Notes under the pieces: model-generated | What the model was told of the DNA's origin: nothing | The model's input: only the letters and a program-made list of their open reading frames with translations | Database searches by the model: none | Made by a program: the position numbers and the translations under genes | Part shown: in pieces, positions 1,327-53,533 of the stretch | Layout: each line of letters starts with the position of its first letter | How positions within the stretch are numbered: the first letter of the stretch is position 1 | Source: a virus | Reading direction: 5' to 3' (one strand) | Length of the DNA stretch: 64,000 nt | IMG/VR virus record: IMGVR_UViG_3300008111_000005 | Span: 1-64,000 of that record

Positions 1327-1362
1327 GCATGCCCACCTGCGGTGATAAAACAATGATAAAAC

Positions 1363-1407: not shown

Positions 1408-1460
1408 CTTGTCAAGCCCTAAAATAACATTGTTACATTGTAACGATTACTTGGGGGCGG

Positions 1461-1490: not shown

Positions 1491-1519
1491 AGTATAACCA
1501 AAACGGAGAAAGAAACCGC

Positions 1520-2230: not shown

Positions 2231-2232
2231 AA

Positions 2233-2373: not shown

Positions 2374-2374
2374 T

Positions 2375-2554: not shown

Positions 2555-2555
2555 T

Positions 2556-2765: not shown

Positions 2766-2768
2766 CTA

Positions 2769-2987: not shown

Positions 2988-3120
2988 GTATTTTTTAAAT
3001 ACGTTCGACCGATGATAAAACTGCCCGAAGAAACCCCGAACCCCGAATCATCATAATCCGACGTTTTATCACGCGGGGCCGGCGCAATTGTAACGGAATT
3101 GTAACGGACAGTATAGGGGC

Positions 3121-3150
3121 TTGTGTTCCCATAATATAGGGGTATATTAC
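3121..3150 (+). promoter_or_regulatory. Promoter class TTGTGT-N16-TATATTAC (copy 2)
   Basis: Leader nearly identical to copy 1 (TATTACAGTATACCCAAAACGGAGAA); TTGTAACGGA tandem repeat upstream. Confidence 0.65.
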
Positions 3151-3178
3151 AGTATACCCAAAACGGAGAACAAAAACG

Positions 3179-3475
3179 ATGAGCAACGAAACGTATAACG
3201 GCTGGACCAACTACGAAACGTGGCGCGTGAATCTGGAAATGCTGGACGGGATGACGCCGGAAGATTTCGGGTTCCAGCTGTATAACACGGATGCCGACAG
3301 CCTTGCCGATATGGTGAACGACCTGAAAATGAACCTAGAGGAGCACGTGTGGGAAATTGTTGGGCAGGACGCCAAGGGGTTCGCGCTGGACCTCGCGGAG
3401 AGTTTCCTCGCTCGTGTGGATTGGGAGGAAATCGCTGAGCATATGGTATCCGACTACGCAGCGGAGGTGGCGTAA
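3179..3475 (+). CDS. Acidic phage protein with YNGWTNYETW N-terminal motif
   Basis: Recurrent phage early-gene motif; GGAG RBS. Confidence 0.7.
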   Translation: MSNETYNGWTNYETWRVNLEMLDGMTPEDFGFQLYNTDADSLADMVNDLKMNLEEHVWEIVGQDAKGFALDLAESFLARVDWEEIAEHMVSDYAAEVA

Positions 3476-3476
3476 T

Positions 3477-3692
3477 ATGACAATGCATCCTAGCATTACC
3501 CTTGACACTATCCTCGCCGCGGTGCAGGATGATTATATCGGCATCTGCATCCGTTGTGGGCAGGAGCAGGAAGGCGTGGAGCCCGACGCCCGAAAGTATG
3601 AGTGCGACAGCTGTGGGGCCAACGCCGTCTATGGGGCGGAGGAACTGCTAATGGCTACCGGCGCTATCCAGTCTGTCGTGGGGGCTCGCTAA
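3477..3692 (+). CDS. Small zinc-ribbon protein
   Basis: CIRC...EPDARKYECDSCG...VYGAEE; GGAGG RBS. Confidence 0.7.
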   Translation: MTMHPSITLDTILAAVQDDYIGICIRCGQEQEGVEPDARKYECDSCGANAVYGAEELLMATGAIQSVVGAR

Positions 3693-3901
3693 TGTTGAAG
3701 CGTCAGCGGACAGTACGTAAGGGCTGTGTCTACCGGTGGGCAGGGTTCTCACCGTATAACCCTAAAATCAAAAAGGATGCCCTGCTTCGCGTGGTGAACA
3801 TTCCCGGCGGGAGCAAGGGTGGCGTCTATCGTAACGTAGAGGATATGCAGGGCAATATTCATTTCGTCCATATCGGCAACCTGAAGCCCCGAAACGCCTA
3901 A
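3692..3901 (+). CDS. Small basic hypothetical protein
   Basis: TAATG overlap with the upstream gene. Confidence 0.55.
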   Translation: MLKRQRTVRKGCVYRWAGFSPYNPKIKKDALLRVVNIPGGSKGGVYRNVEDMQGNIHFVHIGNLKPRNA

Positions 3902-3907
3902 TATAAG

Positions 3908-3943
3908 AAAACCCCACATGAATTTGTGGGGTTTTTTCTTTTT
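3908..3943. terminator. Bidirectional terminator at the +/- convergence point
   Basis: AAAACCCCACA-6 nt-TGTGGGGTTTT followed by T tract. Confidence 0.8.
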
Positions 3944-4006
3944 CTAAAAAATGATAAAACACGGGCACACCTTGCCCTAATATTATATTATATAATAAAA
4001 AACTAC

Positions 4007-6654: not shown

Positions 6655-7494
6655 TTACAATAAATGCTTTATTTGTTTTGCATCATAAAAGAAATCAGCA
6701 GTCCACTTACTCACACCCAACATTAATCGCTGACCCTGCGGGGTAAACTTACCCACCTTCCACAATTCATCAAGACACTTATCGAATCGTGACCCCCATA
6801 GTTGAGCTTTGTATCGTGACTCACCATTGTCTGGTTCATATTTTAGATTATGAATATGTGTATGTGCCACCCCGAGAAATGATAGGTAGGCGTGTAGTGA
6901 GGCAGACACAGGACGATTGGTAGGTTTGTTACCCACCGCAGGTTGTGCCGTGTTGGCGTAACTGTTTACAATAGACCAACACAATTCACTTTCGTGATTG
7001 AGGATAAACTCTTCTGTGGTAGGAAAGAATGTGTTTGCTCCCGTACCAAATCCCAACGCAACTAACTTCCAGTGCATCAGTTCGTGCACAAGATTAGCTA
7101 ACGCAGCAACGGGATTGTACTGGTCAATTGAAGTCATAATTGCCCATGCCCCAGGATGACCAAATTCATTACCATCGTGTTGACCACTATAATTCTGACC
7201 CACTTCAAGATTAGGAACGATTACATCTACCAATCCACGGACATTATTATATCCCAACGGCCACACTTGCTGATAAATGTTAGCGAACGATTCAAAGTCT
7301 AAGGTTTTAATCGTCTGATAATCTTGTTCAGAACGAGGAACGATTGCAACCTTTCCATGAAACTTTGTCATAGACGACGGATACTCAACAGGAACATATC
7401 CATTGTTCTTTTTAATCTTCGTGAATACATCTATGTCGTAACCATCTTCTTGTGGTTGTAAGATACGACTGTAATCAATATCGTGAAATAACAT
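6655..7494 (-). CDS. HExxH-domain protein, aKG-HExxH peptide hydroxylase-like (paralogue 1)
   Basis: LANLVHELMHWKL plus downstream RPVSASLHAYLSF. Confidence 0.6.
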   Translation of the reverse strand: MLFHDIDYSRILQPQEDGYDIDVFTKIKKNNGYVPVEYPSSMTKFHGKVAIVPRSEQDYQTIKTLDFESFANIYQQVWPLGYNNVRGLVDVIVPNLEVGQNYSGQHDGNEFGHPGAWAIMTSIDQYNPVAALANLVHELMHWKLVALGFGTGANTFFPTTEEFILNHESELCWSIVNSYANTAQPAVGNKPTNRPVSASLHAYLSFLGVAHTHIHNLKYEPDNGESRYKAQLWGSRFDKCLDELWKVGKFTPQGQRLMLGVSKWTADFFYDAKQIKHLL

Positions 7495-8070
7495 TTATCT
7501 ACCCTCCGGATGCATCCATCCAATTTTCTTTGAAATTTTTTCTTTAACAATATGTTCCGGCACACATGCGCCTAAACTTAATACCACCCTTGGTCGGTTA
7601 CCAACAACAGGGGTAGAACCGTGCAACCATTCCGATGCGTAGTTCATCCAACATTCACCTTCATCAACCCAATATTCTTTTCCATCAATAATTGGATTAC
7701 CACCGATATCTGGTTTCTGTATCATGAAATTAAATCGTAAATGAATATTCCCATTACTGTCACGACTGTCTTGGTGTTCATGCACACTACCACCTGTTAA
7801 GTTGACACCGATAAAATTTCCAAACTGTGGTTCTGGTAAAATATTAGAGACACCGATTTGCTCGTATACAATTTCTCTATACGCGGATACTATTTGTGAC
7901 AGTTCCAGTTCTGGATATTTGGTAAGCATACAAAAGCGTCTGCTACACTTGGCAGCATCCGCTCGGGGGTCCATGTTATATTTAAAATATTCCAATCCAG
8001 AGTGTAATGCAAAATCTAGGATTTTATTTTTTATAAAGGTAGGAATGGTGACATTATACTTTGGATTCAT
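7495..8070 (-). CDS. 2OG-Fe(II) oxygenase
   Basis: HEHQD...LHGSTPV...RVVLS facial triad and Arg pattern; start at ATG 8070 after GAGG. Confidence 0.75.
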   Translation of the reverse strand: MNPKYNVTIPTFIKNKILDFALHSGLEYFKYNMDPRADAAKCSRRFCMLTKYPELELSQIVSAYREIVYEQIGVSNILPEPQFGNFIGVNLTGGSVHEHQDSRDSNGNIHLRFNFMIQKPDIGGNPIIDGKEYWVDEGECWMNYASEWLHGSTPVVGNRPRVVLSLGACVPEHIVKEKISKKIGWMHPEGR

Positions 8071-8120
8071 AATAACCTCATTACATTGTACTTCAATACA
8101 TATACTCAAACGAACGGGAA

Positions 8121-8148
8121 TACGCCCGTTACCGTAGTAACAGGCGTA
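8121..8148 (-). terminator. Stable hairpin with C(UACG)G tetraloop 3' of the MoxR gene
   Basis: Minus strand TACGCCTGTTAC-TACG-GTAACGGGCGTA. Confidence 0.55.
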
Positions 8149-8166
8149 CCCACTATCACGTTTCCC

Positions 8167-9327
8167 TTAAACGTTAGAAACGAAGTCAGCTTGCTCCCAC
8201 GGTACACTAGCGGTAATGTTGGGGTTCACAAAGTACTTCTGCACCACTTGCCGCATGTACGTGCGTTCCGAATCATTACCACCAGCGGGAGAGAAGAAGG
8301 GATAGACACACGCCTCAGCAGCCTCTGCGAGAGTGAACCCATCATTCAACAGACCAGCCATCTCTACCGTCATACGTGATGAGATAGAAGTAGTAACCTT
8401 TGGATCTTCGCTACGAACCTGCGTACGAGTGTGGTCTGCAATCTCTGCGATTGCACGAAGCGCATCGGGATTAACCTCTGGATACGTCATCGTGAGAAGA
8501 GAAAGTTCATCGTCCCTGTTAAGCGGTTCCATCTCGACCACCGAAGCAAATCGGTCCATCATCGCTCGGTCAAGGACACGGGTGGCGGTGTACTCACTAC
8601 CGATATTTGCCGTAGCGATAAACGTTACACCCCTCGCCACCTTAATCGTCGGCGTGTCTGGCATCTCATCAATGCGAAGGTAACGCTGGTTCTCATCAAG
8701 AACCGTCATCAGAATGTTCCAGGCGTCAGCGTGTCCACGCGTCAGCTCGTCAAGAAGAATGATGGCGTTGTCATCCTGAATTGCCTTGACGAACAGAGCC
8801 TCAGCCACGAACGTACCCTTGTCCTTGCTGAAATGGGTATTACCGATAAGCGTGGAGCGGGGATCCTGTGTAGCGCCGAGGTTGAAGTAGTAGAACCGCC
8901 GGCCATCCAGCACGTTTGCGATAGTCTGTGCGGCGAGAGTCTTACCACAACCAGAAGGACCAGTCATCATAATGTTCTTACCACGAAGTACCGAACGCAT
9001 CAGATATCGCCACTTCAACGAATCCATAATCAGATGCGAGGGCTTGAGAGTTTCACAGTTCTTCAAAAACTCTACCACATCATTTTCCAGTTCATTTTTC
9101 ACATTCTCTACCTTCTTGGAGGGAACCGCAGTCTTGCGGAGAGCATCGTAGTCTGCCATATCAGTATCACGCCACTGCGTACGACCAGTCTTGGTGTTCA
9201 ACATACGGAGTGCAGTACCGTTTGCGTTGGCTCGCTTTCGAGCGTGGAGTGGAATATCAACAGTCATGTCATTGCCATGCTGGTCAATTGCCGTGAGATT
9301 ATCCAGAACCTTTACAAGAGTGGTCAT
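8167..9327 (-). CDS. MoxR/CobS-type AAA+ ATPase
   Basis: GPSGCGKT, ILLDELTR, FIATANIG, LDRAMMDRF, SSR motifs. Confidence 0.9.
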   Translation of the reverse strand: MTTLVKVLDNLTAIDQHGNDMTVDIPLHARKRANANGTALRMLNTKTGRTQWRDTDMADYDALRKTAVPSKKVENVKNELENDVVEFLKNCETLKPSHLIMDSLKWRYLMRSVLRGKNIMMTGPSGCGKTLAAQTIANVLDGRRFYYFNLGATQDPRSTLIGNTHFSKDKGTFVAEALFVKAIQDDNAIILLDELTRGHADAWNILMTVLDENQRYLRIDEMPDTPTIKVARGVTFIATANIGSEYTATRVLDRAMMDRFASVVEMEPLNRDDELSLLTMTYPEVNPDALRAIAEIADHTRTQVRSEDPKVTTSISSRMTVEMAGLLNDGFTLAEAAEACVYPFFSPAGGNDSERTYMRQVVQKYFVNPNITASVPWEQADFVSNV

Positions 9328-9370
9328 AATTCCTCAGAGAGTGTAGTTGGTCGTGAACTTCATACTCTGT

Positions 9371-9409
9371 AATATAATACGGGGACTCATCATAAGACAA
9401 GTCCCCGTA
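9371..9409 (-). promoter_or_regulatory. Promoter overlapping a hairpin
   Basis: TTGTCT-18-TATATT with TACGGGGACT/AGTCCCCGTA inverted repeat around the -35. Confidence 0.5.
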
Positions 9410-9453
9410 CATTAGGATTCCATTAATGTTACAATTGTATTAAATAGTATTTA

Positions 9454-10824
9454 TTAATATACTTCTGTCCATGATAAGGTACACCCAACATCGGTACTGG
9501 TTCCTGTCATATTCTTCATAGCGAGTATATAAATTTCGCTATCATTACTAGGAATATTTTGTGAGATGAAATTTACTTTTTGGTTGACCACAGGGGTTTG
9601 TTGTTGACCTGCCACATTGTTTCCACCACCAACACCACCTGCGAAAATAAATCCACCAGAAAGTTCTTGACCACCAGTATAGGCTGTTGCAGTGACATTG
9701 TATTCTACCACCGAGTTAGGATCAAAAGACACCCAACTACCACCTGTTAGTGACGAGGATTGTGGCAGTTTAACTAATTTGTATTGGCAGGTTTGGTCCT
9801 CAGTAAATGCACTCGCGGCGGTAACTCTAACGAATGCACGATTTGGTACACCACTATATGAATTCTTTAAACGGATTGCCATCACTGGTAATGTAGATCC
9901 AGATGATACTGGACGTAACGCAGGGCTACCAAATGCAAAACTGATACCTTGTTCTTCGTATCCACCATCACTCAACACGGTAGAACAAATCTGCTCCATA
10001 CTACCTGTTGCGGCAGGTGCGGATGTATTCACAATTTCACATCGTACTGGAAGGTTTGGATTTGCCATATATACTACGTCTGTTGTGTTTGAGTGGTCAA
10101 AGGTGTGACAGATTACGGTAATACCTTTGTGTACAAATCCACAACGAACACGACCAACACCTAACCATTGAAAGTCGGTGTAGAATAGTTGTGTTTTGGT
10201 AACATCAAACGTAAACGGACCAGATAATAAATTATTAACATTCCAATTTTCTTGTTTAACACGATTTTCTACTATTGACCCAGTTCCATTGGTAGATGAA
10301 CGAATAACAAATTGTAAACTTCCAGTTTGGTCCTGTTCTACGAAAATACCATTAAAATCATCAAAATAACCCGTACGTTTTACTACACCAGGTTCTGCGG
10401 TACCGAATATAAAACTACTGAGAATAGTCTGGCTTTTTCCAGGTAAATAATTGTGATACATTTTTGTTTGATGTATCGCTCGGCTACCGGATGTTAAACT
10501 GGTTTTTAGTGTGACCGATGCTCTGTTCACATTGAAAGTTAAGGACGCTGCACTTGATGTAAAATCTACGAAATTTTTGTCAATGGAATAAATGTGTTTG
10601 TAGTCATTGAGAGTAAATGGGATTGCTACACGTTGACGACCGAATGCATCATACAACGGGTCTACTGAACCACTGCTCAGTGTTCCACCTTGTGAAGATT
10701 TGAACACACCAAGATTATTGTACAAATGTAATAATTCCCATCCATCCTTACCCTTTTCATTCATATTATCCAATGCGTTTGGTAATAATGATGGAAGTTG
10801 GTCTATTTTATATTGTATTGACAT
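9454..10824 (-). CDS. Putative virion structural protein (beta-rich)
   Basis: DAFGRQRV, YLPGKSQ, WLGVGRVRCGF, NLPVRCEI motifs typical of large-phage structural-type proteins; preceded by ACTATTTATA. Confidence 0.55.
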   Translation of the reverse strand: MSIQYKIDQLPSLLPNALDNMNEKGKDGWELLHLYNNLGVFKSSQGGTLSSGSVDPLYDAFGRQRVAIPFTLNDYKHIYSIDKNFVDFTSSAASLTFNVNRASVTLKTSLTSGSRAIHQTKMYHNYLPGKSQTILSSFIFGTAEPGVVKRTGYFDDFNGIFVEQDQTGSLQFVIRSSTNGTGSIVENRVKQENWNVNNLLSGPFTFDVTKTQLFYTDFQWLGVGRVRCGFVHKGITVICHTFDHSNTTDVVYMANPNLPVRCEIVNTSAPAATGSMEQICSTVLSDGGYEEQGISFAFGSPALRPVSSGSTLPVMAIRLKNSYSGVPNRAFVRVTAASAFTEDQTCQYKLVKLPQSSSLTGGSWVSFDPNSVVEYNVTATAYTGGQELSGGFIFAGGVGGGNNVAGQQQTPVVNQKVNFISQNIPSNDSEIYILAMKNMTGTSTDVGCTLSWTEVY

Positions 10825-10850
10825 GTATATTACCCAGAGAAAGTCCAGTA

Positions 10851-10860
10851 TATAAATAGT
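10851..10860 (-). promoter_or_regulatory. Putative late promoter ACTATTTATA
   Basis: Exact 10-mer also at 15688, 19233 and 39468, each 23-33 nt upstream of a start codon. Confidence 0.6.
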
Positions 10861-10872
10861 ACAAATGTAAAG

Positions 10873-10904
10873 AAAATCCCCCGCCAACTCTGACGGGGGA
10901 TTTT
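10873..10904. terminator. Bidirectional terminator
   Basis: AAAATCCCCCG/CGGGGGATTTT stem with A/T tails. Confidence 0.75.
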
Positions 10905-11198
10905 TTATTTTTCTGCCGTTATATTTAAACTATTTTGTACTCTGTCAATCAATCCTTTGGCGAGTTGTTCCAGTTCACCAATACAGTAATTATTCTTTCG
11001 AACTTTCCACGGTTTATTCAAATCGGCATATAACTCACTGACTTCACCGGTTTGTGTGTTGTAATGTAAATACAACCCATACATCATTGCACCCAAATTC
11101 CCTGAATCGTGTTTCCGTTTTCGATACAAATATTTCGAGAAACGATTTAGATGCTCCGCCAATGTCTCATTGCCGTGTGGCCAACTGATATGTGTCAT
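10905..11198 (-). CDS. Hypothetical protein
   Basis: Coupled to the VWA gene by TAATG overlap. Confidence 0.55.
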   Translation of the reverse strand: MTHISWPHGNETLAEHLNRFSKYLYRKRKHDSGNLGAMMYGLYLHYNTQTGEVSELYADLNKPWKVRKNNYCIGELEQLAKGLIDRVQNSLNITAEK

Positions 11199-13450
11199 TA
11201 GGACTTTTTGAGTAGAAGGTTATTCATAGTACGAAGTACCTCAGTTACATTCTGCACATTCACAAACACAGCGTTTTCACCATACATCTTTTTGAAAGCG
11301 ATATGCGAATAGCTGTGGGGTCTGCTAGTTACGTACTCAGAAATGAAATACGACATAACCTTGACACCAGCATCACGCATCGCTTGTACCTGTCGCCGTG
11401 TATGATTGAATGCTTCCTCACCACCATAACTACGATATTCACCACCACGACGAACAGATGTACCAGGTTCACCATCCGAAAAGTTAATGAAGTACGTATC
11501 GTATTCACCAGAGCATTCCGTAATAAGGTCTAGCGTTGCGTTGAAGCACAATCCCTCAGGAGTAGAACCTGTCGGACACAGAGAAGGAAAGAGGTTACGA
11601 ACCTTTTGGAAATTATCAACTCGACTGTCATGCACCACAGCGACCATAGGAATTTCACTATCACCACGAATCGTAACAACAACTTCAATATTACGAATTT
11701 TACTAGCGACATAGGACAATGCAGTAGCCACGGTAATACACTGTTCCCACTTCCTGCCACTCATAGAACCAGACGCGTCCAGAGACAGATGGAGCATCGC
11801 AGGCTTAAAGTTTTCAACCGTGGTTCGCTTGAACACACTCTCAATATCCATACCCAGCTGAGCGAGGATACGGCGGTCAATACGACCGTGATCCTGACGG
11901 GTAAATGTTGTTACAACAGGATCGTTACGAACCTGCAACCTATGCACAAGAACCTGACCCATACGAACACCAGATACCACTGCATTCTTGTTACGTTCAG
12001 TAGAGTACAGAACCTTTTCACCCTTATGATGCGTAACATGCGAAAATGGGAAGAACTCCGACTGCATAATTTGTTTATTAATTTTACGTGTAACAAGACA
12101 CGGGAACATACCGACAATCTTATCACCAGCCTCAACAATCTTCGCATCTGCGGATTCGAGATGCTGAATGTCAGCCCGTTCCTTCGCCTTCAACTTCTTA
12201 CGACGATTCTGACCACGCATTACCTGCTCCATCTTCTTCATCGCATCCAACGCCTTCTTCTCATTGAACTTACCAGGAACAACCGATGACTGCGTGTTGC
12301 CAATATCAAGATTTTCCAAGCCATCCAAATTCATATCAAACTGCACACCATCCATCTGAATCTGCACAGTTTGTGTGGACGTATCCGAGTTAGCCTTTTG
12401 CATCTGCTGTTCATAATCGCCAATGTGCTTCATAATTTCATACAGTACATCATTGGCAACAGTCCACAACGGTGGGAGGGTTTCGTAATCCAACAACGTA
12501 ATATACGAAGGGCCGCCCGAATATGATTTACTACCACCATTGATATACCAGTTTTGCCAAGGAGAATTGGTGAACGAAAAACTCCACTCAGCAAAACGTT
12601 CTGGCATCCGCTTAGTAATATCAAATCGGCGGATATTCTTCAAATCAATCATACCGACCATCTTAGACAGCCCGGGCAGTGCATTGCGGTCAAAGTTCGG
12701 ATGAAAAATATTAATCAACCAGTTCGTGTAATTCTGAAACGTAGGAGTACGCCACGATGGATTGTGCTTCAAGTTTTTGGTAACTTCGGTATTAAAGAAA
12801 TACTTGGTATACATCGCATCGTAATAAGGACGATACCCCGATGCGTTCTTATACACATACGAATCAATACGACGATCTTCGATTACGTTCATAATAACAC
12901 CCAACATCTTCTGCATCGCCAGCACCTGCAAACGAATTTTGTTGAGGCCGATATCGTTACGATTATAATCAATCTGATAATCGGGATGAAGCAGACCACG
13001 GAGTTCAGGACTCAACGCAATGTAGCACTGCTCCCAATTCTTCTCAGTAATCAAATGTTCCAACATATTGAAATCCGAAAGGAGACAATGTGACCCCTCG
13101 TGTAGTGCAAGACCCACCATAGAATCGAAATGTTTCGAATCATCTTCAGCAGCAATTACAACACGCTTACCATCGGTATACGAATCCTTGCCGGAAGAAA
13201 AAGCCACTTCAATCGTTTCATCGTTGGTGAGAATACGAACAAAATTAGCAATAGCTCGACGAACAGAGGCAAGCTTGACAATACGCTCTGGATTTATAAA
13301 GTCATCTTTGATTGTAGATGTGGTGTACTCATCATCATCAAAATCCATCCAATACGAACTGTAATTAGTAGCCTGCTTCTTCTTAACACCTGTCCGCGTG
13401 TTAAGTGTCCACAGAGTTTCTTGTTCATATGTGTCGTAGTATCTTGACAT
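11198..13450 (-). CDS. VWA-domain protein with N-terminal HExxH metallopeptidase-like domain (CobT-like MoxR partner)
   Basis: ALHEGSH, NVIEDRRID; MIDAS DASGSM, TPEG, FSDGEP. Confidence 0.85.
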   Translation of the reverse strand: MSRYYDTYEQETLWTLNTRTGVKKKQATNYSSYWMDFDDDEYTTSTIKDDFINPERIVKLASVRRAIANFVRILTNDETIEVAFSSGKDSYTDGKRVVIAAEDDSKHFDSMVGLALHEGSHCLLSDFNMLEHLITEKNWEQCYIALSPELRGLLHPDYQIDYNRNDIGLNKIRLQVLAMQKMLGVIMNVIEDRRIDSYVYKNASGYRPYYDAMYTKYFFNTEVTKNLKHNPSWRTPTFQNYTNWLINIFHPNFDRNALPGLSKMVGMIDLKNIRRFDITKRMPERFAEWSFSFTNSPWQNWYINGGSKSYSGGPSYITLLDYETLPPLWTVANDVLYEIMKHIGDYEQQMQKANSDTSTQTVQIQMDGVQFDMNLDGLENLDIGNTQSSVVPGKFNEKKALDAMKKMEQVMRGQNRRKKLKAKERADIQHLESADAKIVEAGDKIVGMFPCLVTRKINKQIMQSEFFPFSHVTHHKGEKVLYSTERNKNAVVSGVRMGQVLVHRLQVRNDPVVTTFTRQDHGRIDRRILAQLGMDIESVFKRTTVENFKPAMLHLSLDASGSMSGRKWEQCITVATALSYVASKIRNIEVVVTIRGDSEIPMVAVVHDSRVDNFQKVRNLFPSLCPTGSTPEGLCFNATLDLITECSGEYDTYFINFSDGEPGTSVRRGGEYRSYGGEEAFNHTRRQVQAMRDAGVKVMSYFISEYVTSRPHSYSHIAFKKMYGENAVFVNVQNVTEVLRTMNNLLLKKS

Positions 13451-13547
13451 AATCACCTTTCGTTTAGGGTATACTATAAAGATATATCCCCCTCACCGAA
13501 AAGGAAAGGGGGACATCATTACGTTTTGATTAATATTGTAATAAATA

Positions 13548-14453
13548 CTATTTAACAAATATACATTGTTTATTACCTTTTTTAATTACCTTGTAAGGTG
13601 TTGCCGTTACATCAGTTAACGTATGTATGGTAAATACTGGTGTATCAATTGTGGCTACACCATATTCCGCGGTCCACGTTATTTCCCAATCCAACATCTT
13701 ACATAACATATTATATTCGTATCCATATCCATATTTCGTTGCAATACCAAGATTTTCCAATGCAATTCGTTTAGATTCGGTACAATTAAATGAACACGGT
13801 AAATGTGTAACTAACTTTAACCCAGCCCATCGAAGAAGATTACTAGCCCAGATTGGTGTTGTTTCAGGTAATTCGATAGCATTATATTCACCAAGAATAT
13901 TTTCTGCTTCAACATAATCGGATGTATTGGTAATTGTACAGGCTGCTTGTTGCCACGTTGTATCAATACCACCTCGTCGCATCCACACTTCCGTAAAATG
14001 CTCTGAACAACAATGTGGGTATCCTAATCCACGACCAATGAGATATTCTCCCATAAATACATCACGTTCACGAGTTTTCCAGATGTCATTCCACTTGGAA
14101 ACCAATTCTGGTTTGGTTACAATAGAACGCCATACAAATTGTGCCTGTCCATCCCACGGAAGTGAGTGATTACCGTAGTTACCACTCATATTGTCTGCTT
14201 CTTTGTTTAGTAAAACAATCTCCAATCCATATTTACGAAATTCTGCACGTTTTTGTTCAACATCGGCGGGTCGAATAAACAATAAATGTGCATCACGAGT
14301 TCCTTCAATTACCGAAAGATATTCAATGTGGTTGAATACGCCAACGATATTAGACATTAATTTTCTGTATTTATCCGCGTCTTTTTCATATTCTTGTTTA
14401 AAAGAAATATTAGTAAAGTTTGGACGTTCAATGTCTGTTTTTATAATCTGCAT
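13548..14453 (-). CDS. DUF483-like Cys-rich protein
   Basis: GLGYPHCCSEHF and THLPCSFNCTES motifs. Confidence 0.55.
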   Translation of the reverse strand: MQIIKTDIERPNFTNISFKQEYEKDADKYRKLMSNIVGVFNHIEYLSVIEGTRDAHLLFIRPADVEQKRAEFRKYGLEIVLLNKEADNMSGNYGNHSLPWDGQAQFVWRSIVTKPELVSKWNDIWKTRERDVFMGEYLIGRGLGYPHCCSEHFTEVWMRRGGIDTTWQQAACTITNTSDYVEAENILGEYNAIELPETTPIWASNLLRWAGLKLVTHLPCSFNCTESKRIALENLGIATKYGYGYEYNMLCKMLDWEITWTAEYGVATIDTPVFTIHTLTDVTATPYKVIKKGNKQCIFVK

Positions 14454-14455
14454 AA

Positions 14456-15475
14456 TTACCAATTACCCAACTGTATGAGGTCTATTAATTTCGGAATAAC
14501 TGTCTTTGGCGATGCTTGTTCTAATATTCTACGTTGTCCATTATAAGCAATATTATTTAGTCGCCATTTATTACTAGGTTTAATCCATTCTCTGTGTGCT
14601 TTAATTATCTGGTCGGCTGCTCTCATTGGATTGGAAGCCATACCAATAGACAGCCGTGAACCAACAGGTACGGCAATATAATGATAGTTGGGTATTAAGT
14701 CAATAGCCAGATGATGCGTGTGTTCATATAACATAACGGGAAGTCCCAATGTCCACAATTCATGTTCACGGGAACACCACTGATGTCCTGGTAGTCCTAG
14801 ATTAATTGTATGCGTCGCTGCTTTTCTAAAAAAGTCTTGCATTGGAAGTTTTTTCTCTGTACTACCAACACAAACCTCATCGGGATATTTGTATTCCAGT
14901 GCGGATATTACTTCTCTAATTTTAACCCCATCGTGTAAATAATCATCACGATTATTTCCAAAGAAAAATACTCTATCGTCCAATTGAGATGAATTTCTAA
15001 TATCTTGAATTTCTTCAATCATAGATTCAACAACATTTGGATAATATGGGAAATAAACAAATGGTAGTAATTTCGTAAAATCTAACCACGGATTTTCGTG
15101 ATGATAACGTTCCAGCGAATACTGACCAAGTAACGACATGACATAACCTGGAAGTGTTTGTAGATACCGCGTCACAGATGGAGCGTCTTGTAAATCTACA
15201 ATAACAAAATTTTTTGTTTCGTCGTTAACTATTATAAACCATAGGGAGTCAGGTATATACGGTCCATTTGAACTTACATTAATATCCACTTCTGGAATGT
15301 ATAACACCTTATTGTCTGCACACAAATTAATATAGGTAATATTTGCTTCGTGTCCCATATCAAACAGTACAGTTTTTAATTCATACGCCAGAAGTTCGGT
15401 GAAATATGTGTTGATACCAACTGGACTTGGATTATGTCCCTTATGTGCTGGATGATATATTGTGTAACTCGCCAT
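14456..15475 (-). CDS. Hypothetical protein, possible glycosyltransferase (GT-B-like C-terminus)
   Basis: VFFFGN, LGLPGH..CSREHE..LGLPV, LIPNYHYI, IAYNGQ pattern. Confidence 0.45.
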   Translation of the reverse strand: MASYTIYHPAHKGHNPSPVGINTYFTELLAYELKTVLFDMGHEANITYINLCADNKVLYIPEVDINVSSNGPYIPDSLWFIIVNDETKNFVIVDLQDAPSVTRYLQTLPGYVMSLLGQYSLERYHHENPWLDFTKLLPFVYFPYYPNVVESMIEEIQDIRNSSQLDDRVFFFGNNRDDYLHDGVKIREVISALEYKYPDEVCVGSTEKKLPMQDFFRKAATHTINLGLPGHQWCSREHELWTLGLPVMLYEHTHHLAIDLIPNYHYIAVPVGSRLSIGMASNPMRAADQIIKAHREWIKPSNKWRLNNIAYNGQRRILEQASPKTVIPKLIDLIQLGNW

Positions 15476-15483
15476 AAATACCT

Positions 15484-15654
15484 TTATTGTTTTTCTTCTA
15501 CATAGTCGTCATCATGCCCGAAATCCATTCCCATCGCCTCATAATACATCTGGACATTCCATTCACGGAGGTCATTCCGTGTAGAGTCCCGATGAGAAAC
15601 TTGACGAGGAGTTGATTCTTGCACGAATTCCCGTAACATTTCGTTTTCGGACAT
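15484..15654 (-). CDS. Small hypothetical protein (56 aa, not in ORF track)
   Basis: MSENEMLREFVQES...; GGAG RBS; ACTATTTATA upstream. Confidence 0.55.
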   Translation of the reverse strand: MSENEMLREFVQESTPRQVSHRDSTRNDLREWNVQMYYEAMGMDFGHDDDYVEEKQ

Positions 15655-15715
15655 CGTGTTTCTCCAAGTTTAATTGTGAAAGGGTATTATAAATAGTAAA
15701 ATAAAATTTTAAAAT

Positions 15716-16387
15716 TCATCTCCCCAATTCACGCAATATTTCGTCTTGGAGATTACGGATGTCGGACTGATGTTGGTTGACCGTTTCCTCTATTTCGGCA
15801 TCCTCCACAGGATCCATAGAATCTGTTGGCTTAGGTCCGTCATCCTTTTGTTTCTTGGCGTGTTCTGGGTCAGTTAAACTAGTTTCCACATACTTCTGGT
15901 GGGCCACCCACGGTGCGCCGGTAGTCAAAAACATACAATTATAACATAACAGATGTAGGTTATCTCTTGAAAAATCTCCCATCTTGTCTTTGAAAGTTAA
16001 CATCAACGGGGATTTACCATCTGACAATCGTTTCTCATTAAATCCACACAGACCACATTGTTCATTTAACATATGACGAGCTACCATACGATATTTTAAT
16101 CGTATCATACTATAATCCGTATGCTTGTTGGCAAATATGTCTCGTAGTGGAATACTTTTCGGATTCTTTGCAAATCCCTTGGTGGTACCTAATCCAAGAG
16201 GATTTGAATGCTGGTCATACAAATTATATATCTTGGCGTAACGTCGGTAACGAGGTTCACTGACACCCAACCATTTCGCAGCCTGTCGGTTACTGTTGGT
16301 GTTTCGTTGTGCCTCTTCTATTTCAGATTTCAATAAGGGTATAGACTTTCTACCCGTGTTGGAACTACCTACCTGTTTTTTCGCCAT
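15716..16387 (-). CDS. HTH plus degenerate HNH/zinc-ribbon protein
   Basis: QAAKWLGVS helix; CGLCG...NLHLLCYNC. Confidence 0.55.
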   Translation of the reverse strand: MAKKQVGSSNTGRKSIPLLKSEIEEAQRNTNSNRQAAKWLGVSEPRYRRYAKIYNLYDQHSNPLGLGTTKGFAKNPKSIPLRDIFANKHTDYSMIRLKYRMVARHMLNEQCGLCGFNEKRLSDGKSPLMLTFKDKMGDFSRDNLHLLCYNCMFLTTGAPWVAHQKYVETSLTDPEHAKKQKDDGPKPTDSMDPVEDAEIEETVNQHQSDIRNLQDEILRELGR

Positions 16388-16508
16388 AATTTATATATAA
16401 AACTGGAAATTTCTATTAATATCATTGCGGTCAGACACACCATTAAACAAACTATGGCAACGAAGGTAAATAACGACCAACCAAAAATATTAAAGAGTAA
16501 GGTGAGCA

Positions 16509-17174
16509 TTAGTGTGTAAAATTAGTAATCAATGGAAATAATTTACCAATGGCTTCGGCACATGCTATAGCAATTTCCCGATGTTCTTTCTGCGTTGCTT
16601 CATCACTTCTGATATCAATATAATGAATCCAACTACGAATCGTTCCATTCACATACATACGTGACATTGTAAGTCCTTCCGGAAGAACGGCACGTGCCAC
16701 TTCCTTGGCGATACCTTTATCCAACGCCCATACATAGGCGTCCAACGCTGCATCCCATGCTTCAAGCTGCTTTCGTTGCCACTGTGATTGTAGTGAAGAA
16801 TCCGTGGTTACTATACTTGCCTGACGATTCTTAACGTCTTGTAAACGTGCTTCCCGTAGACATGGTTTCATATCCAATGATTCTACCGAAGCGTATCGTT
16901 GACTGAATTCTTGAAACGTGAAACTACGATGCCTGAGAATCTGTCGGGCAATGTCACGGGTTGTTTCAATTTCAAGTGTAAGATTGGCCATCTCAAATGG
17001 TGACCAATGTTTATGTTTAATCAGATAACTAATAAGTTTATCTGTTGTGTCGGTATTTGTTTGGTTGCTCGGATTACTTACACGAGCACAAAATGCTATT
17101 AAATCAGTAAGGTCACTGTCTGGACCTAACTCTTCGACACACGGAGTTGTGTACGAAACCAATTTGACTTTCAT
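16509..17174 (-). CDS. thyX: FAD-dependent thymidylate synthase
   Basis: HWSPFE, RHRSFTFQEFSQRY signature, AKEVARAVLP. Confidence 0.97.
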   Translation of the reverse strand: MKVKLVSYTTPCVEELGPDSDLTDLIAFCARVSNPSNQTNTDTTDKLISYLIKHKHWSPFEMANLTLEIETTRDIARQILRHRSFTFQEFSQRYASVESLDMKPCLREARLQDVKNRQASIVTTDSSLQSQWQRKQLEAWDAALDAYVWALDKGIAKEVARAVLPEGLTMSRMYVNGTIRSWIHYIDIRSDEATQKEHREIAIACAEAIGKLFPLITNFTH

Positions 17175-35055: not shown

Positions 35056-35439
35056 TTATTCCCCATACATATTCTCCGTTACTTTTTCTTCTGTCTTTAA
35101 CACAGTTTTCTTAATGAATACTTCACGTAACGTAGATATCTTCGTTAATAAATAGGTTCGATAGGGTCTGTCACCAACGAAATTTGAGTTTTTGAAACGG
35201 TCGTAAATTACCTGAGTATCAGTTTCATCACCAATCAATTTAAATATTTGACCAAGTTTTTCTGGTGTTAGAGAACCCAGTGACAAAGCGTGCATTTTAC
35301 CTTCCCAATTGGGATTGAGTACGAGTGCATATTTCTGCTCATTATCGTAGGTAAACTGCACCACTTTGCCAGTAGTCAAATCTTTTTGAGAAACGAAAGT
35401 ACGAACACCTAATGTACCTTTATACCCTTCTATTGCCAT
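35056..35439 (-). CDS. Hypothetical protein
   Basis: Coupled ORF; YRTY motif. Confidence 0.55.
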   Translation of the reverse strand: MAIEGYKGTLGVRTFVSQKDLTTGKVVQFTYDNEQKYALVLNPNWEGKMHALSLGSLTPEKLGQIFKLIGDETDTQVIYDRFKNSNFVGDRPYRTYLLTKISTLREVFIKKTVLKTEEKVTENMYGE

Positions 35440-36746
35440 TAGTTAATCTTCTTTAATGTTGGAAGAACCAATTTAGTTTCAACGGAAAATTGTGGAACAT
35501 ATTTGTCTAACAACTCAACTGTTCTGTTAAAAATAGTTTGATACGAGAACTTCTTAACATTTTGTTTTGCTAACAACTGTGCCTTCTTTTTAAAATTACT
35601 GTAATTCTTAAATACGGCGTACATTGCGTTTGCTGATTGGTTCATATCAGGAGCGAACCACGTAGACTCCCGAATCAATACACCGTCCCACACAGAACTT
35701 TCGTGGATAGGTTTGAGTTCACCACCAATTAGTAATGAATTGTCTTTATCCAAGAAATCAAGTTGACCACTCCATCCAGATGCGATTACGGGTTTGCCAC
35801 TAATTGATGCTTCAAGTAATGGTCTACCAAACCCTTCACCCTTGGTTAAACTTACGTGTGCTTTTACCTTTGAGTGGTTATATAAAGAATTCATTTCTTT
35901 GTCTGTTAACTCACCATGCAATAAATAAATATTCGGCATGCTCTGTCCAACGTTCAAAGTAACAGATTTCTTGATTTGTTCTATTTTCTTTAATATATCT
36001 TCTCTGTCCAAGATAGAAAATCCAGCACTACTAGTTTTTAAAATAAGCGCAGGCTTTTCTTTTTCTGGAATTTGTCGGAATGTTTCAAGGAATATTTTCA
36101 CCAACAGTGCAACATTCTTACGGTCCTCTCCAAATTCACCACGGAGCCAGTGACCAACGAAAAGATAACAGAACTTCTCTGGGATGCTATCCAATGTTTC
36201 TCGTATTTTTGGCTCTAAATTAAAATCATATTCGATTTTTTTAAATATGTTATTGTCAATACAATTGTGTAATACTTCAATTGGTTTGGTGACTGCTAGT
36301 TCACCAATGATATTACCTTGTTGATTTTGCTGTGAGTACTTTGAGAAATGAAAAACATTCTTTGAGTGTTCGGAAATAGTCAGTACTAAATCCATTTTAT
36401 TACATGCTTGTATCCATTCAGCAGAAGCCACGGTGGTTTCAATGCCGGCGGTTATACCGATATTGTACTTTCCTAACGGTTCAAATTCTGTTGGGATGGT
36501 AATTGTAACATACAATGATGGTTGTGGTAATTGTCCACCACGAATGATTCTATCCAAAATCATTTTGTCCTTTGGATTAGTTTCATCCAGTGCATTCATA
36601 GGAGTATCACCCCACGGTACACTGTGCACCTTCACATCAAACTTATCCCATTCAATGATGTGACGGATAATGTCTCTACTCATATCACCATAACCAGAAC
36701 GAGTCTGGCATGGTGCTCTAACTATACATAACGGTTTGCCTGTCAT
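35439..36746 (-). CDS. Glycosyltransferase family 4 (GT-B)
   Basis: TRSGYG, RKN, KGEGFGRPLLEA, SGWSGQLDF. Confidence 0.85.
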   Translation of the reverse strand: MTGKPLCIVRAPCQTRSGYGDMSRDIIRHIIEWDKFDVKVHSVPWGDTPMNALDETNPKDKMILDRIIRGGQLPQPSLYVTITIPTEFEPLGKYNIGITAGIETTVASAEWIQACNKMDLVLTISEHSKNVFHFSKYSQQNQQGNIIGELAVTKPIEVLHNCIDNNIFKKIEYDFNLEPKIRETLDSIPEKFCYLFVGHWLRGEFGEDRKNVALLVKIFLETFRQIPEKEKPALILKTSSAGFSILDREDILKKIEQIKKSVTLNVGQSMPNIYLLHGELTDKEMNSLYNHSKVKAHVSLTKGEGFGRPLLEASISGKPVIASGWSGQLDFLDKDNSLLIGGELKPIHESSVWDGVLIRESTWFAPDMNQSANAMYAVFKNYSNFKKKAQLLAKQNVKKFSYQTIFNRTVELLDKYVPQFSVETKLVLPTLKKIN

Positions 36747-38172: not shown

Positions 38173-39270
38173 TTAAAATGCTATAATTTCACTGCCACCA
38201 CCACCTCCACCGCCACCACCACTATCTCCGTGTTGTATGTAGGTATCTGTGTGTGGAATTATTTCCGTATCGGAATGAGGAATGTCTGAGTGTGGTACAT
38301 ATGTGTCATTATGAACTGGTGTATCCGTATGCTGTGTGTCGGTGTGTTGCACCTGTGTATCATTATGCACCGTATCGTTGTGTGATGTATCTGCGTGTGT
38401 TGTGTCGTTGTGTGTGGTATCCGCGTGTTGAACAACAACGGTATCTAAATGCCCAGCTGCTCCATCAGCACCAGGCGTCCCTGCTGCACCGGCAGGTCCT
38501 GGTGGACCTGGTGGACCTGGGGTCATAGCCCTATCCAACGCTGCTTGTGCTGATTGTGCCGCTGCAGCTGCGGAAGCCGCTGCAGCTTGAGCCGTTGCAA
38601 GGGCTTGTTGTGCTAATGCACGTACAGGAGCAACTTGTGATTCTACGTACGCTACAATTCTACGCCAATACGGACCATCAAGATATTCATAAATTGGTGT
38701 ACCGACATCTTCTGCAAATATTCTGTTACCTTTTTTTGCCGTAGAATCTTCACGGGTACGTTGTGCTTGTGGAACGAATTTCGCATTTAAATGCGTTTCA
38801 ATCATATCATTCAATTCGTTATTTGTTCTGAATAATTGACCCGTTGCCTGTGTTAACGTAGGTGTTTGTGGTGGTGTAACCGTTACCGGAGTAGTATCCG
38901 TTACGGGTTGTGGTATTTCTTGTGCAGGTGTAAACGATTGTGGTGGATAGAAATTGGCACCAATACCCTTGTCAGGCAACAATCGTAGGTATACACCACC
39001 TGGAGCGATTTCATCATAATCACCAGTGAACAATCCACTTCTGTATGCATTGAATAGTTCCTCTGCATCAACATAGTCTGGATTAATGAACACCCAACCA
39101 CCCGAAGTTGTTGCGGTACTTAATACGTTGGCTGGTAAATTATTTAATTTACGAGTTTCCTCTGCACGTTCTGGTGTAATTACTATACGGCTGTATTTGC
39201 CAGAATTAAATTCGGCTACATCCCCGGCTCCAGCCGCAAAATATATATCTTGTTTTGTTGGTATAGCCAT
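38173..39270 (-). CDS. Collagen-repeat protein with C-terminal His-x-Asp repeat tail
   Basis: Ala-rich coil, GPPGPPGPAGAAGTPGADGAAG, 13 HxD motifs, poly-Gly end. Confidence 0.8.
   Translation of the reverse strand: MAIPTKQDIYFAAGAGDVAEFNSGKYSRIVITPERAEETRKLNNLPANVLSTATTSGGWVFINPDYVDAEELFNAYRSGLFTGDYDEIAPGGVYLRLLPDKGIGANFYPPQSFTPAQEIPQPVTDTTPVTVTPPQTPTLTQATGQLFRTNNELNDMIETHLNAKFVPQAQRTREDSTAKKGNRIFAEDVGTPIYEYLDGPYWRRIVAYVESQVAPVRALAQQALATAQAAAASAAAAAQSAQAALDRAMTPGPPGPPGPAGAAGTPGADGAAGHLDTVVVQHADTTHNDTTHADTSHNDTVHNDTQVQHTDTQHTDTPVHNDTYVPHSDIPHSDTEIIPHTDTYIQHGDSGGGGGGGGGSEIIAF
38224..38451 (-). repeat. Coding H-x-D repeat array (13 units)
   Basis: HLD, HAD, HND, HAD, HND, HND, HTD, HTD, HND, HSD, HSD, HTD, HGD. 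Confidence 0.9.
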
Positions 39271-39279: not shown

Positions 39280-39444
39280 TTATAAAGTGATACTACCGGA
39301 CATACTAGAAGAAATAAAATTAGACCATAACTTTTCTGTAATGGTACTTGCAACAAACCCGTTAAGTTTACAAAACTCACGAATGTGTTGATTTATTTCT
39401 TTCGTAATTTGCACGGTAGTATATGAATATTTATCTTTTCTCAT
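39280..39444 (-). CDS. Small protein, possible ribbon-helix-helix (54 aa, not in ORF track)
   Basis: MRKDKYSYTTVQITKEINQHIREFCKLNG...; ACTATTTATA upstream. Confidence 0.5.
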   Translation of the reverse strand: MRKDKYSYTTVQITKEINQHIREFCKLNGFVASTITEKLWSNFISSSMSGSITL

Positions 39445-51702: not shown

Positions 51703-52308
51703 TTACTCCTTTACAAAAGCAGTTTCTTCTGGATTAATTCCTATACTTTCTACATAATATATTTTGTGATTCACTTTTAATTTTATTGGTAATTTCCAAT
51801 TAGTGAAGCTATCTTCCCACCATCGTACCCGATTGTTTGGCATGGCTGCGAGATACCCCTCTTCCGACACCAACATATTAAAACTTTTATCTTGTTGTGG
51901 TGCGTTGGAATAACCATCATCATAAAATTCGATTGCCCATCCCAATCCACGGCCGGAAAATTTGTTACCGTGCGAATCCACCCACTCAGCACTTAATCCT
52001 TTGGAAAACTTCATATCTATAATACCAAATTCTGCACCGAAGCATCCCCACACTTGATGAGTATGTAAATTTTTTGCAGGAGGTATTTGTTTGGTGGTAT
52101 CTTGTCCAATAACAAGTCCGTGAATGGGTACACCACGATATTGTGCACCATTTTCCAATAACACAGAAAATGTCAACGCTTGGGTGGGTCTAACTGAGAC
52201 TGCATGAATAATACAATTATCTAGTCCAGTGTCCGTTCCATTGGTAATAAATTCACGACGAACTTTACCATATAAGTGATACGGAAGAGATGCGGTCAAC
52301 GAATACAT
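51703..52308 (-). CDS. Hypothetical phage protein
   Basis: VRREF, LENGA, P.H, PNNRV.W motifs. Confidence 0.6.
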   Translation of the reverse strand: MYSLTASLPYHLYGKVRREFITNGTDTGLDNCIIHAVSVRPTQALTFSVLLENGAQYRGVPIHGLVIGQDTTKQIPPAKNLHTHQVWGCFGAEFGIIDMKFSKGLSAEWVDSHGNKFSGRGLGWAIEFYDDGYSNAPQQDKSFNMLVSEEGYLAAMPNNRVRWWEDSFTNWKLPIKLKVNHKIYYVESIGINPEETAFVKE

Positions 52309-53162
52309 TACATTAATTTGGATAATGTTTTAAGTGTGTCTTTATATTCTTCTTGATAATCACGAGTCCATCGGTACAATCCAAGAAGTAATTGTGCTCC
52401 CTTTTCCGTGGTATGTGCCTTTAACATCAAAGCCTCCAAGGATTCGTTCAATCTGTCTCCCCACTTCTTCGCGTAACCCAACCAATGGTAATGTGCTTTA
52501 AAATCGTGTTGTACGAAACGTAGAGATACTTCAGCTTCACCTAAGAATGAGGCATATGCATGAAGTGACGCACTAATGGGACGGCCTGATGCTTTGTGTC
52601 CAACAGCAGCTTGTGCTGTGTCATCATAACTATTCACAATAGAGTGATGTAGTTCTTCAACTGGATTTAAGACAAATTCATTATTGTGATGTAACATATC
52701 GAATACTTCTGGTGTACATCCCTTTCCAAATCCTAGTGCTGTAAATTTCCAATGAATCATTTCGTGATACATGTTTCGAACCGTAACCACTGCATCACCA
52801 GGAAGAGGAGCCATAACAATCCAAGAATTTGGATATTCAACTGCCGCCAACTGACATGAGAATTCGTTCCTATCGGCTGCAAGTTCGATTGGAGTGAATA
52901 CATCCACTAAATTTGTTATGGTATTCCATATAGTAGGTACTGCTCGTGGAGCAATTTGTGCCAATGTATTTAAGTGAGAATCGTTATTGGCAAATGAGGT
53001 GGGTAATGTAGATGGATTAAAAGAATGAACATACATACCAGAAACTTTCTTATATGGAAATTCTTTTTTAACAAATCCCTTTTGCAACTTAATTTGTTTA
53101 AACACCTCTACATCATAACCATCGGGTTGTGCTTGGATAACCCTACTATAATCTATTGTCAT
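52308..53162 (-). CDS. HExxH-domain protein, aKG-HExxH peptide hydroxylase-like (paralogue 2)
   Basis: NMYHEMIHWKF; RPISASLHAYASF; clear paralogue of 6655-7494. Confidence 0.6.
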   Translation of the reverse strand: MTIDYSRVIQAQPDGYDVEVFKQIKLQKGFVKKEFPYKKVSGMYVHSFNPSTLPTSFANNDSHLNTLAQIAPRAVPTIWNTITNLVDVFTPIELAADRNEFSCQLAAVEYPNSWIVMAPLPGDAVVTVRNMYHEMIHWKFTALGFGKGCTPEVFDMLHHNNEFVLNPVEELHHSIVNSYDDTAQAAVGHKASGRPISASLHAYASFLGEAEVSLRFVQHDFKAHYHWLGYAKKWGDRLNESLEALMLKAHTTEKGAQLLLGLYRWTRDYQEEYKDTLKTLSKLM

Positions 53163-53533
53163 AAAACCTCTTCCCATGCATACTGGGCGTTTAATTTAAA
53201 GGTACCGACATATCCACCCCAGAACGCTTGAGCAGGATTTACCAGTGATATAAAAGCAGATCCATTTTGCTTCTTATATAGATAGTAAGTATCCCCAATA
53301 TTCGGCTTAAAACTTATTGAACTTTCATACAACATTTTATTGATAGAATATTCTCGTACCAACTTTTCATAATCCCGTACAACAACATCATACCGTTCTT
53401 TAAAATAATGTTTAAACGTGGGAGACACTTCTGCTTTCCAAGTATCAACATCAACTGGATGAATTGTTGCTGGTGCGTTAGGTGTGATTCCATACGTTAA
53501 TGCGTTTGGATTTTTATTTTCATCATCGTTCAT
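53159..53533 (-). CDS. Hypothetical protein (DUF2452-like)
   Basis: LTYG, FKPNIGDTYYLY, F.SL..P..W. Confidence 0.55.
   Translation of the reverse strand: MNDDENKNPNALTYGITPNAPATIHPVDVDTWKAEVSPTFKHYFKERYDVVVRDYEKLVREYSINKMLYESSISFKPNIGDTYYLYKKQNGSAFISLVNPAQAFWGGYVGTFKLNAQYAWEEVL

Follow-up and report, generated by a model that had tools for sequence, protein, structure and literature searches.

Radical S-adenosylmethionine (SAM) enzymes of the SPASM type can act on full-size proteins, as does anSME, which oxidises the beta-carbon (C-beta) of a residue in such a protein. Triceptide synthases join the C2 of histidine to the C-beta of the residue at +2 on HAA, HNR and HTK motifs (PMC11499958), and the products can be tailored further: an alpha-ketoglutarate HEXXH (aKG-HEXXH) enzyme fused to a radical SAM enzyme adds beta-hydroxyl groups to Asp and His after the cyclophane has formed (PMC12636437), and YhhB is paired with the Asp hydroxylase YhhC (PMC12186529). 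In bacteria, HxsB and HxsC mature a whole protein bearing His-x-Ser repeats, which are essential as an array (PMC13128918). Thermus phages Cumys and phiMa carry an 'rSAM module' for which DNA modification has been proposed, in a paper that leaves the repeats unmentioned (Viruses 2024, PMC11437467). Here we analyse a gene at positions 38173-39270, on the minus strand, of a 64-kb stretch of virus DNA (the window), which is the first 64 kb of the 104,871-bp IMG/VR record IMGVR_UViG_3300008111_000005 (G000; 55% complete according to CheckV). Its product, a 365-residue protein, ends in a ladder of 13 H-x-D motifs. To our knowledge, radical SAM maturation of His-x-X motifs has been described for small peptides (the triceptides) and for a single defence protein of bacteria (HxsA), and not for structural-type proteins of phages. 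We show that selection acts on the His, Asp and Thr of the ladder and that a radical SAM enzyme encoded in the same genome belongs to a family paired throughout with such ladders, and we tentatively propose that the 365-residue protein is a further substrate of this enzyme.

The record comes, judging from its DNA polymerase, from a large myovirus-type phage without a close cultured relative: the polymerase shares 43% identity with its counterpart in Microcystis phage Mel-JY01 and ~33% with the enzymes of T4-like cyanophages. Nearly all genes of the 104,871 bp lie on the minus strand.

Selection on the ladder of a modular fibre-type protein

The gene and the parts of its product are as follows.

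38173-39270, minus strand: whole open reading frame (ORF), a ladder-tipped coiled-coil/collagen protein of 365 residues with an ATG start and zero internal stops
38941-39270, minus strand: N-terminal globular domain, residues 1 to ~110, confined to the closest homologues (P0001, P0002 and L005)
38836-38940, minus strand: Pro/Thr-rich linker, residues ~111-145, read directly from the sequence
38521-38835, minus strand: conserved head of ~70 residues (YLD..YW.RIV core) that continues as a long, Ala-rich helix, residues ~146-250, the family-defining module
38452-38520, minus strand: seven to eight collagen-type Gly-X-Y triplets, residues 251-273, with GPPGPPGP invariant among homologues
38224-38451, minus strand: ladder of 13 H-x-D-[T/I/S] motifs at a spacing of 5-8, residues 274-349, identified from the sequence
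38173-38223, minus strand: nine glycines, a short hydrophobic C-terminal end (SEIIAF) and the stop codon; homologues end in TFF or TFI

This reading of the ORF agrees with the architecture given in an earlier note on the same DNA, namely an N-terminal domain, a Pro/Thr linker, an Ala coil, about eight Gly-X-Y triplets, 13 HxD motifs and poly-Gly. The collagen segment runs GPP GPP GPA GAA GTP GAD GAA and gave no match to PF01391 (Collagen) at E ≤ 1, seven to eight triplets being too short for the Pfam model; the N-terminal domain found no match in Pfam or PHROG searches. The product is a modular fibre-type protein, probably trimeric, and we infer both its trimer formation and its presence in the virion.

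The 73-residue tail holds 12 motifs, compared with a mean of 1.95 and a maximum of 8 in shuffled versions (0 of 100,000 shuffles reached 12), and every His of the tail falls inside a motif. Across five homologues sharing 57-95% identity, H and D are each conserved at 98% and the +3 residue, mostly Thr, at 86%, as against 40% for x and 48% for the spacers; the selected unit is therefore H-x-D-T. The codons are mixed (CAT and CAC for His, GAT and GAC for Asp, ACA, ACC and ACG for Thr), and in the L005 copy, which is 94% identical, a five-residue deletion has taken out one motif unit. Selection thus acts on the H, D and T of the ladder. We reject an origin of the ladder by repeat slippage in view of the irregular codons and spacers, which argue, like the gap in conservation between H and D (98%) and the other positions (40-48%), for selection on the motif itself. 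The earlier note was accordingly right that H and D stay constant while spacers and codons vary; its unit, HxD, has to be lengthened by the conserved +3 Thr, which it had overlooked.

Five homologues were found among 5.8 billion clustered proteins, along with one IMG/VR copy, and a scan of metagenomes with the family alignment returned near-identical copies only. A full HMMER scan with residues 140-232 gave 15 proteins among 1.84 billion representatives, all with the ~70-residue head (YLD..YW.RIV core) followed by a coiled coil, and with tips that vary from none to Ser/Thr-rich, another domain, or collagen plus ladder. Judged from these alignments, the core of the family is the head, coil and tail, the N-terminal domain being restricted to the closest relatives. 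Phage fibres typically show this pattern, in which the base is conserved, the stalk oligomerises and the tip varies. With a 15-sequence alignment of the head region, AlphaFold2 predicted a short helix followed by one long helix, at a predicted local distance difference test (pLDDT) score above 90, and a Foldseek comparison of this model with the PDB returned nothing with E below 2. Searches of 50,697 phage records with megablast (4 kb around the gene) and tblastn (the protein) gave no match; Pfam, PHROGs, NCBIfam and PDB sequences yielded low-complexity noise only, and the ESM Atlas gave viral clusters without a name (best score 0.85) and hence no lead.

Family-wide pairing of a radical SAM enzyme with ladder proteins

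The earlier note had predicted a radical SAM/SPASM gene elsewhere in the genome. The record indeed contains a single radical SAM gene, which lies outside the window (C1:90116-91429, minus strand; PF04055, 62 bits) and 52 kb from the gene of the 365-residue protein. The encoded enzyme has a CX3CX2C motif at residues 12-19 and eight C-terminal cysteines (248, 253, 273, 307, 310, 316, 320 and 336); these include CX2CX5CX3C, which with the further cysteines makes, at the level of sequence, a SPASM pattern. Its best NCBIfam matches are anSME, DynA, YhhB, AmcB, GrrM/OscB and FxsB, with anSME at the top (76 bits, cut-off 349). It falls far under the curated cut-offs of the cyclophane-synthase families YhhB, AmcB, GrrM/OscB, FxsB and XyeB (39-68 bits vs 310-450), and its alignments to them cover the N-terminal core only. 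Among solved structures its best relatives are anSME, aligned over residues 3-320 with E 6e-11, and the radical SAM domain of the triceptide synthase ChlB.

Searching the genome for further HxD-tailed ORFs, as the note had proposed, gave three more proteins with H-x-D/N motifs, all adjoining the enzyme gene; they total 87 motifs, and one of them is fused to collagen. The same cassette encodes two further collagen-like proteins, a DUF483-methyltransferase fusion, and a 118-residue protein that repeats the motif-bearing piece of the enzyme's own C-terminus. The core of the arrangement is thus a radical SAM homologue, a DUF483 protein and an H-x-D/N ladder protein, mutually adjacent.

A scan of IMG/VR with the enzyme gave 22 loci at 42-100% identity. 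Ladder ORFs adjoin the enzyme gene in all but one of the loci that have upstream DNA, the exception being L022, for which just ~3.4 kb of upstream DNA was available. In the group at 52-56% identity the order is a giant fibre gene, a ladder protein of ~195 residues, the DUF483-methyltransferase, an ORF of 180-210 residues and the radical SAM gene, with an extra HExxH gene before the 180-210-residue ORF in L021 and L022. An independent scan for a DNA pattern (three period-5 HxDT units) gave 12 loci, and the variable-spacer ladders outside the family of the 365-residue protein (L049, L053 and L056) adjoin a radical SAM homologue of 39-46% identity in three of three cases. The last of these (record G013, C1:34052-36664, minus strand, 65% GC) encodes an 870-residue tail-type protein directly after a gene of tape-measure size; its C-terminus bears ~65 H-x-D motifs, in which Phe or Tyr can substitute for His in register, and it is followed by the radical SAM gene and a further ORF. 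Thermus phage Cumys, which is in culture, encodes a homologue of the enzyme at 46% identity (gp12), a DUF483 protein (gp11) and gp13, which comes after baseplate and tail-collar genes and combines three GSxW repeats with 54 H-x-D motifs.

Within the repeat regions, His is followed by Asp or Asn at +2 in 81 of 81 motifs of the family of the 365-residue protein, in all 87 of the cassette in the same genome, in 398/398 and 45/45 of other cassettes, and in each of the 54 of Cumys gp13; the single exception is one ladder protein of L026 (17/18). The pairing of enzyme and ladder holds family-wide.

The L026 locus (positions 10001-16751) is itself a distant cassette, with two radical SAM paralogues, two stand-alone DUF483 genes, and uncharacterised ORFs of 229 and 396 residues that have an N-terminal motif in common; its ladder uses H-S-N, not H-x-D.

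Weighing explanations for the ladder

On the strength of the published triceptide, HXS (HxsA-D) and anSME chemistry, we rate as the likeliest explanation, held tentatively and at somewhat less than an even chance, that the 365-residue protein is an additional substrate of the radical SAM enzyme, modified in trans with one small covalent ring per rung. The helical head, the Ala-rich coiled coil and the short collagen segment would bring three chains into register, and the aligned chains would carry the 13-rung H-x-D-T ladder, a Gly9 hinge and the short hydrophobic end. By analogy with anSME and the three-residue cyclophane synthases, the enzyme would remove a hydrogen from the C-beta at +2 and bond that carbon to the His ring, so that each rung would become a small covalent ring and the whole a stiff, chemically robust tip. 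Later tailoring by the HExxH paralogues of the window (beta-hydroxylation) and by the DUF483-methyltransferase may follow. A broader scheme, in which one trans-acting radical SAM/SPASM enzyme puts serial His-Asp rings on several fibre proteins including this one, followed by HExxH hydroxylation and Thr glycosylation, seems to us unlikely.

What connects the 365-residue protein to the enzyme is partly that both are encoded in one genome and partly the ladder itself, which obeys the +2 rule of the cassettes. Its dialect (Asp only, x variable, Thr commonest at +3) is closer to that of Cumys gp13 than to that of the cassette in its own genome, and close-spaced Asp ladders in the related phages searched occur in cassettes only, this gene excepted. 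The collagen-to-ladder junction also resembles that of the cassette collagen-ladder proteins, a weak match of 33% over 135 residues with E 9e-6 in a small database. The link between protein and enzyme is, on these grounds, one that we infer.

A number of observations weigh against this link or are neutral to it. The cassette proteins of the same genome have Asn at +2 in 43% of their rungs and Ile or Asn at +3, a dialect unlike that of the 365-residue protein, whose gene shares an operon with two glycosyltransferase genes and is separated from the enzyme gene by 52 kb. The cassette substrates carry GSxW repeats, an N-terminus with FFP, or an end of the form ...QP.FV, and no leader or docking element that they have in common with the protein was seen. 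At the position of the gene, L036 has a tailed version of 260 residues, and L037 and L038 have a tail-less version of 85 residues (head and short coil only). The L037 record starts inside a cassette-flanking gene and overlaps the end of L008, a contig with the radical SAM gene from the same sample, over 117 nt at 100% identity; by this overlap, one phage very probably has the radical SAM cassette together with the tail-less version. The record G002 (148 kb), which has the enzyme, is devoid of both the gene and its glycosyltransferase neighbour, so that the tail goes together with the sugar island and not with the cassette. The tailed form and the enzyme are seen together in G000, the one informative genome; G001 (30% complete) and G006 (16%) are fragments in which no radical SAM gene was found. 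In the 100% complete record IMGVR_UViG_3300046170_000519 (L048/G010; 205,857 bp), which has no homologue of the enzyme, a protein of more than 2,300 residues has many Cys-rich modules connected through perfect (TAHTD)n and (TVHTD)n linkers and through stretches rich in Thr and Pro. A genome that lacks the enzyme can thus encode HxDT strings, though here in the form of a perfect tandem repeat. An AlphaFold2 model of the whole protein from a 6-sequence alignment was unusable, with a pLDDT of 40 and an unstructured tail, and chemistry has been demonstrated for no member of this phage radical SAM family.

The operon bears on the alternatives. It runs from a metallophosphoesterase gene through the three genes below, with that of the 365-residue protein after the first, and heads a sugar island of ~19 kb.

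39280-39444, minus strand: 54-residue ORF, 9 nt upstream of the gene of the 365-residue protein, its position kept in L037 and L038
36748-38148, minus strand: GT4 glycosyltransferase, 24 nt downstream of that gene (PF00534, 36.7 bits)
35439-36746, minus strand: second GT4 glycosyltransferase of the same operon (PF00534, 30.9 bits)

The 54-residue ORF had no family match and by eye resembles a small DNA-binding (ribbon-helix-helix-like) protein.

The tail may, alternatively, be an unmodified metal-binding ladder. In an extended strand, His and Asp at i and i+2 face the same side, so that a trimer would offer three His and three Asp per rung, an octahedral site, and the outcome would be a rigid, metal-stapled tip. 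Sites of the HxH type that bind iron are documented in phage fibres, pyocin fibres and the P2 spike (PMC11705849, PMC6116203, bioRxiv 10.1101/2023.02.25.529910), and the 98% conservation of H and D at i/i+2 between free spacers, the trimerising elements directly upstream of the tail and the (TAHTD)n protein of a complete genome free of the enzyme, with its repeats but no enzyme, all fit this explanation. It leaves unexplained why variable-spacer ladders adjoin the radical SAM gene in nearly all loci examined, and why 43% of the cassette rungs of the same genome have Asn, which binds metal poorly, in place of Asp; nor was a structure obtained, the AlphaFold2 monomer having a pLDDT of 40. We regard such a ladder as doubtful as the whole account, and it is compatible with modification rather than exclusive of it.

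The conserved Thr invites a further proposal, which we consider rather improbable, namely that the +3 Thr residues are O-glycosylated by the two downstream GT4 enzymes with sugars of the ~19-kb island, giving a glycan-coated fibre. The glycosylated collagen-like BclA of Bacillus offers a likeness. Thr at +3 is conserved at 86% in this family, whereas another residue is commonest there in the related low-GC cassette ladders; the gene precedes a GT4 gene by 24 nt in one operon, the succession of head-domain gene and GT4 is conserved in L036, L037 and L038, and G002 is without both. However, the tail-less 85-residue versions, which have no Thr array, keep the GT4 adjacency, so the adjacency is unrelated to the tail; the phages are close kin, and their synteny may be plain inheritance. 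Glycosylation does not account for the invariant His and Asp, and it is compatible with ring formation, and with a metal ladder, rather than opposed to either. That the tail serves as a spacer or hinge of low complexity, devoid of specific chemistry, with function residing in the head and coil as the sole parts common to the whole family, we think very improbable: the variable tips (none, Ser/Thr-rich or ladder) and the tail-less versions at the same position would suit it, but the mixed codons, the irregular spacing and a conservation of 98% for H and D, as against 40-48% for the other positions, speak for selection on the motif. Modification in trans by the radical SAM enzyme thus stays the explanation that we favour, and the interpretation of the earlier note, a dispersed system that cross-links or hydroxylates a fibre tip, is on the whole partly supported.

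Other window genes and comparison with known systems

Three further genes of the window encode candidate tailoring enzymes or their relatives.

6655-7494, minus strand: HExxH paralogue 1, aKG-HExxH-like, a candidate tailoring enzyme (TIGR04267, 35.9 bits, cut-off 40)
52308-53177, minus strand: HExxH paralogue 2 (TIGR04267, 23.9 bits, cut-off 40)
13548-14453, minus strand: stand-alone DUF483-like paralogue of the cassette DUF483-methyltransferase, with GYPHCC and HLPCSFNC (PF04467, 18.6 bits, below cut-off)

TIGR04267 (aKG-HExxH peptide beta-hydroxylase; IPR026337) is the only match for both HExxH paralogues and for the in-cassette HExxH protein of L021 (31.7 bits, cut-off 40), and paralogue 1 is 22% identical (E 1.7e-5) to the in-cassette HExxH proteins of L021 and L022. 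Both paralogues may be linked to the ladder. Homologues occur in 6 of 10 related or radical SAM-bearing records, all of this phage clade; there were none in G013 and G014 and none among 50,697 cultured phage records, the Thermus phages included. We rejected the HExxH genes as an obligatory part of the module, given their absence from G013, G014 and all cultured phages; by this distribution they are a feature of the clade.

The neighbourhood sketched in the earlier note was largely recovered. Its two HExxH paralogues have TIGR04267 as their sole match, both below the cut-off; its DUF483-like protein is the gene at 13548-14453, and its IscA matches PF01521. Two of its three 2-oxoglutarate (2OG) oxygenases were found (a JmjC protein and a 2OG-FeII_Oxy_5 protein), and the third was not confirmed. 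The operon with two GT4 genes had escaped it.

From HExxH paralogue 1 to the DUF483-like gene at 13548-14453, the minus-strand region 6655-15475 is a possible second tailoring cluster. It also holds a 191-residue ORF with a 2OG-like HxD...H pattern seen by eye, an AAA_5/MoxR ATPase (8167-9327), and a 750-residue ORF with HExxH-like and vWA-like features by eye only and no Pfam match. Window positions 1-4000 differ from the rest, having a GC content of 0.49-0.52 and plus-strand ORFs, as against ~0.38 and minus-strand genes in the remainder of the record; the ORFs at 243-1082 and 1520-2230 match phrog_1250 and phrog_1617 (PHROGs, unknown function), and the segment may represent one end of the genome, inserted mobile DNA or a join made in assembly. 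The T4-type late promoter TATAAATA has two coding-strand matches, both within genes, which therefore give no evidence on expression timing. The 131-kb record G007 (L040) begins 117 nt within the end of contig L008 (same sample, 100% identity), and assembly seems to break at the repeat-rich cassette.

The kind of system is known, in that His-x-X repeats are associated with radical SAM enzymes; what is new is the form, in which the repeats make up a portable tip of a fibre-type phage protein whose gene lies at a distance from that of the enzyme. New, too, are the anatomy of the family, the recognition of H-x-D-T as the unit, the operon with glycosyltransferase genes, the syntenic versions that lack a tail, and the identification of gp13, from the culturable phage Cumys, as a counterpart. 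The ladder emerges as a movable unit that fibre scaffolds of different kinds can carry, and its location far from the enzyme implies recognition of the motif itself, not of a neighbouring leader. Being short, with 13 sites downstream of natural trimerising elements, the tail is a convenient test substrate. If it is modified, chemistry known from peptide antibiotics would be used to build a virion appendage; if it binds metal unmodified, it would add a His/Asp form, so far new, to the iron-binding fibre motif.

The latter motif is found in the HxH iron-binding fibres and spikes (T4 gp37-type, R-pyocin fibres, P2 gpV apex), which have in common with the 365-residue protein repeated His-x-residue pairs at i/i+2 in trimeric fibrous proteins. 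Here, however, the second ligand is Asp (Asn in the cassette proteins) and there are 13 rungs, and no relation in sequence or fold to these fibres and spikes was found. As for the enzyme, anSME (PDB 4K36-4K39) is its best full-length structural relative and top NCBIfam match, yet the score is 76 bits against a cut-off of 349 and the ladder proteins have no C/S-x-P-x-R sulfatase motif.

The triceptide systems (HaaB, YhhB, HtkB, ChlB) are alike in having a SPASM radical SAM enzyme and serial aromatic-x-x motifs with His at position 1; in triceptides the +2 residue gives the C-beta, and Asp or His is hydroxylated by HEXXH or YhhC-type enzymes. They differ in that the phage substrates are structural-type proteins of 200-870 residues, not leader-core peptides, with no leader seen, and in that the 365-residue protein is encoded 52 kb from the maturase and not beside it; the chemistry of the phage enzyme is argued by analogy. 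The HXS antiphage system (HxsA-D; Nat Commun 2026, PMC13128918) likewise involves radical SAM maturation of a whole protein with His-x-Ser repeats, but it is a bacterial, periplasmic defence with five repeats, Ser instead of Asp at +2, two radical SAM enzymes plus HxsD, and a change of +8 Da at a single site; HxsB and HxsC are not among the 25 best NCBIfam matches of the phage enzyme. The Cumys/phiMa module matches in its homologous enzyme (46%), its DUF483 protein and its third gene, gp13, which encodes an H-x-D ladder protein. In the present phage the 365-residue protein is encoded outside the module, 52 kb off, and its ladder is mounted on a coiled-coil/collagen scaffold rather than on a GSxW-repeat domain. 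Being culturable, Thermus phage Cumys would allow the same chemistry to be studied in virions.

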